Shown: in pieces, positions 5,652 to 40,904 of the stretch
How positions within the stretch are numbered: the stretch's first letter is position 1
Layout: each line of letters opens with the position of its first letter
Source: a virus
Taxonomy: Duplodnaviria > Caudoviricetes
Virus record (IMG/VR): IMGVR_UViG_3300028364_000013
Length of the DNA stretch: 64,000 bases
Reading direction: 5' to 3' (one strand)
Notes under the pieces: model-generated
The model's database searches: none
The model's input: the letters and a program-made list of their open reading frames with translations, nothing else
Told to the model about the DNA's origin: nothing
Translations under genes and position numbers: made by a program

Positions 5652-5981
5652 ATGAAGCACTTTAGCGGAAAAGAACTTGAACCAAGTAAGTTTTACCAAA
5701 TGGGCGACTTCATTGTAGAATTCATTAAGGACACTGGTGAATTGATAGAATCCTATCCAGGAAAGTTTTCTGGCGTTTATCTATGCAAGTTAACTAACTT
5801 CACAAATAGTTCTAAACACAACTTAGGAGAATTAGAACGTGAAATGAAACTGGTGAAAAATCAAAACTACCCGTGTTTTCAAGAAATAAGCAAAGAAGAT
5901 ATTCAAAAATATATTGACTCTAAAGAAAGAGGCATTAAGTTAGAGCAGGAAAGAATTTGTTTTTTAAAGAAATTTCTATAA
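5652..5981 (+). CDS. hypothetical protein
   Basis: ORF. Confidence 0.75.
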   Translation: MKHFSGKELEPSKFYQMGDFIVEFIKDTGELIESYPGKFSGVYLCKLTNFTNSSKHNLGELEREMKLVKNQNYPCFQEISKEDIQKYIDSKERGIKLEQERICFLKKFL

Positions 5982-6132
5982 AAAAATAATACAATTTTTT
6001 CATCGCACAGTCATTGCCGACAGGCGGATTCCGACAAAATTTTTTCACCATTAATTAAATTTAAAAATATTCTAATTAAATTTCTTCTTATTTATTGTAT
6101 ATTTATTATTAAGACTTATAATAAGCAAATAG

Positions 6133-6342
6133 ATGAGCAAGGAAGATGCGTGTTTTATCCACAACGGAGAAATATACTACATAGTTGGAGCAGCCGAACG
6201 AGATATTGAGAGGTACCTCGAAAATATTGTTGACTTTTATGAGACTGACGAATATCAATCGCTCAATCTAATAAGAATAAAGGCTCAAAAATACCTTATA
6301 GATAGACAAATTCAGCTAATAATGAGCAAATATTGCATTTAA
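6133..6342 (+). CDS. hypothetical protein, C-terminal KYC tag family
   Basis: ends QLIMSKYCI. Confidence 0.7.
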   Translation: MSKEDACFIHNGEIYYIVGAAERDIERYLENIVDFYETDEYQSLNLIRIKAQKYLIDRQIQLIMSKYCI

Positions 6343-37159: not shown

Positions 37160-37233
37160 CACTCCGTATCGGATTCAAACCGATGGTCTTCTCATAGAAA
37201 GTGAGACGTGTTGGGTCGCTACACTAACGGAGC
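37160..37233 (-). tRNA. tRNA-Glu(TTC), atypical
   Basis: cloverleaf; anticodon loop CTTTCTA (U37), T loop TTTGAAT, D loop lacks GG. Confidence 0.8.
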
Positions 37234-37496: not shown

Positions 37497-37569
37497 TTGC
37501 GCAGGCCAGACTCGAACTGACGACCTCAAGATTATGAGCCTTGCGAGCTACCAACTGCTCCACCGCACT
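37497..37569 (-). tRNA. tRNA-Met(CAT), initiator-like
   Basis: TGGAGCAGTTGGTAGCTCG D arm, CTCATAA loop, 1:72 mismatch; lacks the three G:C anticodon-stem pairs. Confidence 0.85.
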
Positions 37570-38634: not shown

Positions 38635-38701
38635 GCTCTCTTTTTTTGTTTGTAACTTTTTGAATTGCTATCGTTATACAACCAGACTAAAACAAAAGAC
38701 A

Positions 38702-38992: not shown

Positions 38993-39283
38993 ATGATGAA
39001 TCAAAAAGAATGGCTTGAAAGAGCAGTAAAATTTGACTTAGGAGAGTGCATTTTTTACAAAAGACCCATTGTAATTGAAAGAAGATTGCAAATAGATGAT
39101 ACTGAAAAATGGGTTCTGAAAATGCACGAATGGGTATTGGGTAAAGATGGTGAATTTCATAGAGAACCAATGCCGTCAAGTAGAACTGATGAATTTATTG
39201 AGAACACAAGATTTAACAGCCCTGACGAATGCCATTCTTTTTGGGTTGAAAACGTGAACTCTGAAAAACCATTGTACGCTTAG
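38993..39283 (+). CDS. hypothetical protein
   Basis: ORF. Confidence 0.8.
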   Translation: MMNQKEWLERAVKFDLGECIFYKRPIVIERRLQIDDTEKWVLKMHEWVLGKDGEFHREPMPSSRTDEFIENTRFNSPDECHSFWVENVNSEKPLYA

Positions 39284-39377
39284 CATTGTGTACAACGTAT
39301 TGCTATATGAATAGTGCGACATTAAATGCACGGAACCTTGAATTAATAACAGAACTAAATAATTAAATTTCTAAAAA

Positions 39378-39617
39378 ATGAAAACATACTTAAATATTGA
39401 ATTGCCTAAAAACTTTATGAATGTAGGAATTACTAATAATAACGAATTAGTAGCCGACACAAACAATAGTGCTGAATGGGACACTTTAAAATTTCCACTA
39501 CCAAAAGGTAAATGGAGAATACATAGTTATAAGGCGGAATTAGATACGCAGACTACAAAAACAATACTAAAGTTAATTGATACTAGAAGTTGGATACGTA
39601 GATTTTTAGAAATTTAA
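39378..39617 (+). CDS. hypothetical protein
   Basis: ORF between attC-like relics. Confidence 0.75.
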   Translation: MKTYLNIELPKNFMNVGITNNNELVADTNNSAEWDTLKFPLPKGKWRIHSYKAELDTQTTKTILKLIDTRSWIRRFLEI

Positions 39618-39650
39618 TTATGGCATTAAAAGCACTAAACTTTAATTACA

Positions 39651-39751
39651 GCACGAACGTTTTGTGTATGTGTAGTAAGGCTATGCACGTACATTGAATA
39701 GAAGAGCTGAACTAATTTAGCCTTATTACATATACACTTTGTTAGCGTTTC
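39651..39751 (+). mobile_element. attC-like site
   Basis: GCACGAAC; arms GTGTATGTGTAGTAAGGCTA / TAGCCTTATTACATATACAC; GTTAGCG. Confidence 0.65.
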
Positions 39752-39783
39752 GTTTTTGAGCGTTGGCAGTAAACAACAATAAA

Positions 39784-40053
39784 ATGAAAAAAGTAGATAA
39801 AAATTTATGGGTATGTACAACTGCTGATATTAAAAAATCAAAACCATCAGACTTTGGAAATGGTGCAGTAATATACGTGAAACCTAATACTAAGGGTGAT
39901 TATAAGTATATTATAAATTTAGACAAAAAAGGATATAAAACATATTCTCTTGGAAGTAGGGTTGAAGATGCTAATACTGGTAAAAAACTAACAACGGCAG
40001 GTTCTAAAAAAGGTATGCGACCATATTTTATAGACGATTTTTTAAGTAGATAG
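39784..40053 (+). CDS. hypothetical cassette protein
   Basis: ORF between two attC-like sites. Confidence 0.75.
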   Translation: MKKVDKNLWVCTTADIKKSKPSDFGNGAVIYVKPNTKGDYKYIINLDKKGYKTYSLGSRVEDANTGKKLTTAGSKKGMRPYFIDDFLSR

Positions 40054-40069
40054 AAATGCGTTGGCAAAT

Positions 40070-40135
40070 GAACGCTAACGTTTTGTGTATGTGTAGTAGC
40101 GAGGCACGAGCTATGCACTATATTTTGTGTTGTGC
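40070..40135 (+). mobile_element. attC-like site
   Basis: ACGCTAAC; GTGTATGTGTAGTAGC / GCTATGCACTATAT; GTTGTGC. Confidence 0.65.
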
Positions 40136-40417: not shown

Positions 40418-40623
40418 CAGCATTTGAACTTTGCGGAAACTACCAAGACCAAAAGTTTAAGTTGAAAGGTGGTAGAGTTGTGTGGGAAAGCATTTCTTAT
40501 GCTCAAAATACAGATAAATGTTACTTAACTCGAATAGTAAAAAGCGGTGGAAAACCTTTTATTTTAGGATTGAGGTACAAAAGTATGTATGTGAAACCCG
40601 AAACAAAGGTTATAGTGTTATGA
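40399..40623 (+). CDS. hypothetical protein
   Basis: ORF. Confidence 0.65.
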   Translation: MEYKEITAFELCGNYQDQKFKLKGGRVVWESISYAQNTDKCYLTRIVKSGGKPFILGLRYKSMYVKPETKVIVL

Positions 40624-40844
40624 GTATAGAAGAATTTTTAAAAGACAGACCAAGCCTTTCTTTGCGTAGACTGGAAACAGAGGCTGATTTGCCAACTAAA
40701 ACTTTAAGTCATTACGTTAATGGTAGAAGAAAATTGAGTGCTGAACATATTGAAAAACTGACGCCTGTATTGTCGAAGTACGGATTTAAGCAACAATTTG
40801 AAAATGATGGATGGTCAGTTGACGACTTGTTGGCCAAGTTGTAA
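40620..40844 (+). CDS. XRE/Cro-like HTH protein
   Basis: SLRRLETEADLPTKTLSHYVNGRRKLS; stop inside next pA. Confidence 0.75.
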   Translation: MSIEEFLKDRPSLSLRRLETEADLPTKTLSHYVNGRRKLSAEHIEKLTPVLSKYGFKQQFENDGWSVDDLLAKL

Positions 40845-40904
40845 CTTTTTAAATTCCTGTCGTTATACCAGTACCTAAGAATAATTAATTAAAACCTCAA
40901 AATT

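Follow-up and report, generated by a model that had tools for sequence, protein, structure and literature searches.

The stretch 39293-40135 of the DNA analyzed here (64 kb from a lake-water phage, hereafter the window) was probably, with odds that we put at about two in three, a recombinase-less outpost of a phage-borne, integron-like cassette system. This outpost would hold ORF B as an intact cassette, ORF A as a probable second one, a single intact site, and two eroded sites. The sites of the proposed system are imperfect palindromes in which (A/C)TAACG and TGTTA cores close a stem of 14-25 bp, small genes of about 90 aa sit between the sites, and in related phages the large arrays end with the gene of a small Xer/IntI-branch tyrosine recombinase. 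This recombinase would catalyze the exchange, swapping modules through crossovers in the AAC/GTT cores (the clearest point being between TAAC and G), and would act in trans on the outpost in the window, a link suggested by association. Both strands or both cores might be usable: without strand selection, both cores would serve for crossover, and hairpin interiors and ORFs would then shuffle independently.

Judged from sequence comparison, the cassette reading is right: the boundaries were conserved and the enclosed ORFs were unrelated. The recombinase was statistically tied to arrays of sites, and this association may reflect a role in the exchange. Among the points that weighed against the main reading were these: (i) no recombinase was within reach of the locus in the 142-kb record, which was the weakest link for the window; and (ii) no single integron-style crossover point explains the unlinked hairpin interiors (see below).

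Cassettes and sites in the window

The region 39290-40135 was located within a run of small plus-strand ORFs, none of them of a known family. ORF A, ORF B, and seven neighbors gave no match to Pfam or PHROGs, except for a weak HTH in 40518-40844, and Rfam (gathering and E-value thresholds) gave two tRNAs and one chance miRNA match, with no family matching the element. The two tRNA genes (37160-37233 and 37497-37569) were on the minus strand, opposite to the surrounding small ORFs. The components of the region are listed in Table 1.

Table 1. Components of the cassette region, with positions in the window
Component	Position	Strand	Description
Left-core relic	39293-39325	+	CAACG, then a left-arm-like stretch with GCTATATG; without right arm
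ORF A module	39359-39621	+	ORF 39378-39617, 79 aa, no family
Site 1	39656-39743	+	Complete 88-nt AAC...GTT hairpin site
Box R	39741-39766	+	GTTAGCGTTTCGTTTTTGAGCGTTGG; right core plus conserved extension, 17 nt upstream of the ORF B start codon
ORF B	39784-40053	+	Cassette gene, open, 89 aa, without Pfam or PHROG family
Box L	40058-40079	+	GCGTTGGCAAATGAACGCTAAC; left core plus conserved extension
Site 2	40077-40135	+	Degenerate; 22-nt left arm as in site 1 plus loop fragment

The ORF B cassette started with GTTAGCGTT (39741) and ended with AACGCTAAC (40071), and these ends were complementary at 9/9 positions, the final 9 nt of Box L and the initial 9 nt of Box R being reverse complements; GCGTTGGCA was present on both sides of ORF B (39760 and 40059). 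ORF A was exactly enclosed by a perfect 19-nt inverted repeat (39359-39377/39603-39621), of which the left arm ended at the ATG and the right arm encoded the last residues plus the stop codon. ORF A together with these arms, which bracket the whole gene, may be a second module, and an ORF within split arms was also present in L059.

Site 1 had the order AACG, 4-nt spacer, 20-bp stem, 34-nt loop, 3-nt spacer, and GTT; its stem was continuous over the 20 bp (G.T/G.U pairs included) with no bulge and thus no extrahelical bases, and it was followed by a T-rich run. Compared to shuffled sequences, site 1 folded well both as RNA (-34.9 kcal/mol, z -4.5) and as top-strand DNA (-11.7, z -2.8). Site 2 contained a loop fragment common to the Panino/L036 type, the pairing right arm was absent, and 40070-40135 folded no better than its shuffles (RNA z -1.0, DNA z +0.5). 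The relic at 39293 was a third, eroded left core placed directly after the stop codon of ORF 38993-39283; it did not fold (z 0.0) and resembled the left-arm-only junctions after TAACG in L023, L083, and L059. The outpost may be inert, because neither site 2 nor this relic folds. The 22-mer AACGTTTTGTGTATGTGTAGTA was found exactly at 39656 and 40077, with none expected by chance, and had no further copies in the window or in the searched 142-kb record, a fragment of a larger phage genome.

A preliminary description of this DNA had reported two imperfect palindromes sharing the 22-mer, near-perfectly reverse-complementary cassette ends, a left-half relic, and no integron integrase in the window. 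The 22-mer, the ends (which also covaried in relatives; see below), and the relic (CAACG plus left arm after the stop codon of the preceding ORF) were all confirmed, and the search for tyrosine recombinases (PF00589) gave none in the window or the 142-kb record; of the two palindromes, site 1 was real, but the one at 40070-40135 did not rise above shuffles. The integron cores RYYYAAC and GTTRRRY named there held in their AAC and GTT, but the 7-mers matched only in part: GTTAGCG agreed with GTTRRRY at 5/7 positions, and CACGAAC agreed poorly with RYYYAAC.

A 30-nt direct repeat TTGTAACTTTTTGAATTGCTATCGTTATAC (38650-38679 and 40839-40868, copies 90% identical) bracketed a 2.2-kb block with the cassette. 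Each copy came after a terminator-like hairpin and resembled an ECF-type promoter (AAC-N15-CGTT), and many metagenome contigs broke or switched partners exactly at these copies. We read the same AAC-N15-CGTT spacing in the right arm of site 1 plus Box R, and an ECF-like promoter reading of the boxes was considered; the two boxes were also considered as sigma-54, sigma-70, or Bacteroidota -33/-7 promoters, but their spacings did not fit any of these three, and no sigma-70-type or -33/-7 consensus was recognizable.

Contigs from four lake sequencing runs, which gave fragmentary and low-depth cover of the locus, had no joint at the cassette, and their only joints were between the 30-mer copies at 38650 and 40839. 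The listed sequencing runs with this DNA included no RNA run. ORF B was present in identical form on four further metagenome contigs, all with an unchanged gene order; empty sites in related phages had been proposed as a check, and these four revealed neither an empty nor an alternative version of this very phage. ORF B as a protein query gave no match in the viral contigs, and the upstream ORF gave one relative, ending at its contig end. Among 5.8 billion proteins, ORF B had two relatives only: (i) L183, the closest homologue (80% aa identity), with boxes and different neighbors; and (ii) L182 (65% aa identity), in a plain operon without boxes.

Conserved boundaries around unrelated ORFs

Viral contigs were scanned with part of the 22-mer for relatives of site 1. 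Site 1 was present at 92-95% identity in L009/L023, L014, and L070, the flanks of which shared no other DNA with the window, and each of these contigs had a different small ORF after the element and the same closing motif. Box R was found exactly in 17 viral contigs, and the last 17 nt of Box L in 64, about 8 of which were chance or coding matches. The 25 non-identical cassettes displayed a constant order of Box R, 17- to 26-nt leader, ORF of 48-129 aa, and Box L, while their ORFs fell into 20 unrelated clusters; their carriers were uncultured phages, represented by many contigs, and one cultured phage, Maribacter phage Panino, with the Box R-ORF-Box L unit, and a Box L variant was present in Cellulophaga phage phi17:2. 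The stop codon, located 3-8 nt ahead of the left arm, was the TAA inside Box L in 18 of the 25 ORFs (tail ...ALANER) and the Box L TGA in 6 further ones (tail ...VGK, second reading frame). A peptide-level role of the ...ALANER tail was considered and rejected: with two other frame outcomes and conservation beyond the stop codon, the tail was more likely a by-product. Many cassette proteins (loci L025-L085) were small zinc-ribbon proteins, two of them with a SEC-C-like CPCGxGKKYKKCC motif, and many of the cassette genes look like zinc-ribbon or short helical host-takeover/counter-defense proteins.

Box R and Box L were each present in at most one copy per genome (up to 3 mismatches) in genomes of 142-390 kb, including complete phages of 330-390 kb; at a looser cutoff (4 mismatches), L059 had a second, diverged cassette. 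The 22-nt Box L was found in 7 of about 186,000 bacterial species genomes, namely one isolate (Sunxiuqinia indica, 113-kb contig) and otherwise MAG contigs, four of them shorter than 5 kb. The cassette system looks phage-borne. A census of genes around the cassettes gave no synteny apart from DNA methyltransferases, the commonest neighbors; no transposase family recurred near the cassettes, the recurrent neighbors being DNA methyltransferases and the tyrosine recombinase only.

Across 22 family members, the stem covaried: GTATG/TATAC was invariant, and the stem segments flanking it changed in a compensated manner. With RNA parameters, the top (sense) strand gave a better fold than the bottom strand at 26 of 27 sites, and with DNA parameters it did so at 22 of 27; the G.U wobbles favored the transcribed strand at 26 of 27. 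The hairpin interiors were linked to neither the upstream nor the downstream ORF. A second hairpin type, in which the stem covaried and the loop CGTTTTAATG was conserved, was observed after Box L in L014, L043, L050, L056, L063, and L087; it often replaced the long site at this position and was absent from the window.

Shared and unshared DNA met at the cassette boundaries as follows: (i) L023 and L097 shared an ORF at about 95% identity from the right arm/Box R through GCTAACG and nothing outside; (ii) the homology between the window and L183 was confined to about TTGTTAGC through GCTAACG, with unrelated flanks; (iii) the block shared by L077 and L087 ended at the last base of Box L; and (iv) extra ORFs were inserted directly after TAACG in L083 (compared to L084) and L023 (compared to L042). 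The paired cassette ends were GTTAGCGTT/AACGCTAAC in the window, GTTAGGCTT/AAGCCTAAC in L059, and GTTAGCTTT/AAAGCTAAC in L183; the latter two were independent compensatory variants that kept the ends complementary, and 4 uncompensated single changes were found besides. The complementarity of the cassette ends was read as functional.

Whole-array differences were found between near-identical phages. L173 and L174 had recombinases of 99.5% identity and downstream DNA of 98% identity, while their 1.6-kb arrays were unrelated, and homology resumed exactly after TATAACG, at a point about 75 nt upstream of the start codon of the recombinase gene. Likewise, the arrays of L172 and L178 differed and homology was back after TATAACG, and in L140 and L141 homology resumed after (C)TAAC.

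A Xer/IntI-branch recombinase at the end of related arrays

Two complete jumbo genomes with Box L (327 kb and 349 kb) had exactly one PF00589 gene each, and two further complete jumbo genomes with Box R or Box L had none. In G004, the sole PF00589 gene was 2.4 kb from the sole Box L; in G002, the PF00589 gene was at one end of the linear record and Box L at the other, and only a joining of the two ends would bring them to a distance of about 1.4 kb. By tblastn, recombinase homologues were found 0.8-4.3 kb downstream of the cassettes, on the same strand, in L026, L028/L030, L052, and L059. A search for IntI-like recombinases had been advised in the preliminary description, and it yielded no such enzyme in the 142-kb record but a Xer/IntI-like one near the cassettes in these four related lineages.

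The recombinase had 268-277 aa, with the catalytic R, HxxR, H, and Y intact. Its best family was XerA, with a score below the XerA cutoff, and it scored 148-156 bits (cutoff 265) on the integron integrase model TIGR02249, in two stretches. The closest solved structures were archaeal XerA (4a8e and 5hxy), and the alignment of IntI4 (2a3v) covered residues 16-180 only. By these alignments, the recombinase is devoid of the IntI-specific insert.

The Box cassette and the recombinase gene were separated by rows of small ORFs, each set apart from the next by a (T/C)ATAACGG...TGTTAT hairpin, with at least 8 such hairpins in L052. Some array ORFs started inside a site loop [5654-5785 and 6121-6246 (minus strand) in L059, and 2327-2450 in L030]; such ORFs read through the right arm and the GTTAG core, so the folded site encoded the first 15-20 residues of the protein.

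Eighty loci, from 221 relatives in the viral collection, were fetched by recombinase alignment alone and scanned for sites (AAC[GT], 4-10 nt, 14-nt arm with at least 13 pairs, loop, up to 6 nt, GTT). The detector found 188 sites upstream and 15 downstream of the recombinase on the same strand, together with 9 upstream and 20 downstream on the opposite strand (236 kb scanned upstream and 370 kb downstream), and thus the same-strand site density was 20 times higher upstream than downstream. Applied to the plus strand of the 64-kb window, it returned only site 1 and one palindromic hairpin. Beyond the letters set by the detector, T before and G after AAC, as well as T before and A after GTT, were conserved, with an outer conserved pair 8-9 nt away, and the family logo was (A/C)TAACG...TGTTA(T/G). 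The gaps between sites had a median of 341 nt, and 134 of 137 gaps held a sense ORF (median 90 aa), dimensions that ORF B fitted; this long ORF, being on the recombinase strand and upstream of the recombinase, pointed toward the recombinase gene. At about 30 of the 80 loci (L103, L113, L116-L120, L123, L132, L135, and others), the contig stopped within about 1 kb of the recombinase gene and did not include the array side, which suggests that assemblies break in the variable arrays.

Alternative explanations and known systems

An unlikely alternative, modeled on the PeSLs of T4-type phages, takes the elements as composite expression signals (the hairpin as a long terminator, Box R as a promoter or leader, and Box L as the context of the stop codon) that are shuffled by ordinary homologous recombination at short conserved sequences in co-infections, with the recombinase as a bystander. 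PeSL-mediated shuffling is documented (PMC2839356, PMC4122927), and several features agreed with this account: Box R preceded every ATG by 17-26 nt, 18 of the 25 ORFs stopped at the Box L TAA and 6 more at the TGA, a T-rich run followed the stem of site 1, G.U wobbles favored the transcribed strand (26/27 sites), and the AAC-N15-CGTT spacing was common to the site 1 right arm/Box R and the 30-mers. It fails, however, on copy number and recombinase statistics: Box R and Box L were single-copy in genomes of 142-390 kb, while PeSLs recur genome-wide, and the 20-fold site enrichment was limited to one side and one strand of one recombinase family. The exact junctions after TAAC beside the recombinase gene (without hairpin or long homology), the compensatory changes in the cores, and the retention of hairpins even where loop and right arm encode a protein start also argued against it. 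An expression role of Box R, Box L, and the hairpin may coexist with recombination, and it was considered in view of the constant spacing from the start codon, the stop codon within Box L, the T-rich run, and the preference shown by the G.U pairs. Whole-array differences with core breakpoints in near-identical phages, the link to the recombinase, and site identities of 92-95% (nt) between phages without other common DNA would all stay unexplained if the elements acted only as RNA (in the processing, stability, or attenuation of early-operon transcripts), with a fast turnover of accessory genes around a slowly evolving RNA; no Rfam family matched either. This reading, which we consider improbable, would account for the strand asymmetry of folding and for the invariant GTATG/TATAC with its covarying flanking segments, and translation could be coupled to folding by the stop codon, which lies 3-8 nt ahead of the left arm.

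A classical integron cassette, with a true attC captured from a Bacteroidota integron and recognized by IntI, would be consistent with the AAC/GTT cores, the 88-nt site, and the complementary cassette ends, and attC sites and integrase-less clusters, some of them recombined by IntI1, are reported in virulent phages (PMC9892861). We regard it as very improbable: the sites had no extrahelical bases and no bottom-strand preference, the enzymes scored 148-156 bits against a cutoff of 265 and aligned with IntI4 (2a3v) only up to residue 180, Box L was in 7 of about 186,000 species genomes, and Polaribacter phage P12002L, which has published attC calls, lacked these boxes. Still less credible was a small non-autonomous, MITE-like transposon with its transposase elsewhere, a reading prompted by the perfect 9-bp terminal inverted repeats GTTAGCGTT...AACGCTAAC and by GCGTTGGCA on both sides of ORF B (39760 and 40059); GCGTTGGCA was part of the conserved boxes in all relatives rather than a variable target duplication, no transposase family was recurrent near the cassettes, and the association with hairpin sites was fixed.

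The preferred reading thus remained a recombinase-less outpost of a phage-borne system that is integron-like only in a broad sense. Strict integron membership fails because of the lack of the IntI insert, the lack of bulged bases, the better top-strand fold, and the genes facing the recombinase. The term integron-type cassette in the preliminary description was accordingly apt for the conserved boundaries, the unrelated ORFs, and the placement of ORF B between different neighbors, but it did not hold in the strict sense: there was no IntI insert, a bottom-strand fold with extrahelical bases had been anticipated, while the stem had no bulge and the top strand folded better (26/27 sites with RNA parameters), and the ORFs faced the recombinase. 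The exchange with integron-like arrays of Bacteroidota hosts envisaged there was not borne out, Box L being confined to 7 of about 186,000 species genomes (mostly short MAG contigs), and, where a search for the cassette in host genomes had been recommended, the boundary boxes were nearly absent from the sampled bacterial genomes as judged by Box L.

A wider reading is put forward tentatively, with doubt slightly outweighing belief: phages of Flavobacteriia-type hosts would own an integron-like exchange with a minimal Xer-type recombinase, with neither IntI insert nor bulged sites, and with crossover at both cores without strand selection, and the window would be a remote, recombinase-less landing place. 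If so, the enzyme would act in trans and reshape remote regions of a giant phage genome. If the recombinase moves the cassettes, phages would own a dedicated device to swap small early genes among very different viruses; such a natural "integron without the integron-specific parts" would make the Xer origin of integron integrases open to experiment. The sites and the recombinase are easy markers for hypervariable accessory-gene slots in uncultured phage genomes, and they may also explain the assembly breaks there.

A classical integron has an IntI integrase with the IntI-specific additional domain, encoded beside the array, and cassette ORFs that are mostly promoterless and oriented away from intI/attI. 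Its attC sites, 57-141 bp long, are imperfect palindromes whose cores are R'' (RYYYAAC) and R' (GTTRRRY); they carry extrahelical bases, and it is their bottom strand that is recombinogenic. The phage system shared with integrons (sedentary chromosomal integrons and CALINs) arrays of single small ORFs split by AAC...GTT imperfect palindromes of about 50-150 nt, complementary cassette ends, a Xer/IntI-branch recombinase at one array end with a hairpin-less junction site beside its gene, an array content varying between near-identical genomes, and, as in CALINs, small outposts without a recombinase. It differed from integrons as follows: (i) the phage recombinase had 268-277 aa and no IntI insert, with archaeal XerA as the nearest structures; (ii) the sites had no conserved bulged bases, and their sense strand folded better; (iii) the array ORFs pointed toward the recombinase, and some began inside a site; (iv) hairpin interiors and ORFs shuffled separately; and (v) the carriers were phages of Flavobacteriia-type hosts, not bacteria.

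In the collection of literature searched, no description of such a phage cassette/recombinase system was found. The PeSLs of T4-type phages are multi-copy promoter/terminator units with homologous recombination between them (PMC2839356, PMC4122927); as in the phages studied here, stem-loops between small accessory genes bound the swapped modules, while the boxes here were single-copy, the sites were tied to a tyrosine recombinase, and the junctions were exact. The attC clusters of virulent phages are likewise integrase-less groups of attC-like sites, and DNA methyltransferase genes are often nearby (PMC9892861). Qi et al. (2023) called these phage sites with bacterial attC models (IntegronFinder/HattCI) and had them recombined by IntI1, and described no phage-encoded partner recombinase (PMC9892861); the boxes were searched for in P12002L, the one Flavobacteriia phage of that study, and were absent. 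Finally, the pdif (Xer) modules of Acinetobacter plasmids reportedly have 28-bp double-stranded XerC/XerD sites with no long hairpins and depend on host enzymes, unlike the sites in the window, and they offer a possible analogy in that gene modules are placed between inversely oriented Xer-type sites (PMC7399989).
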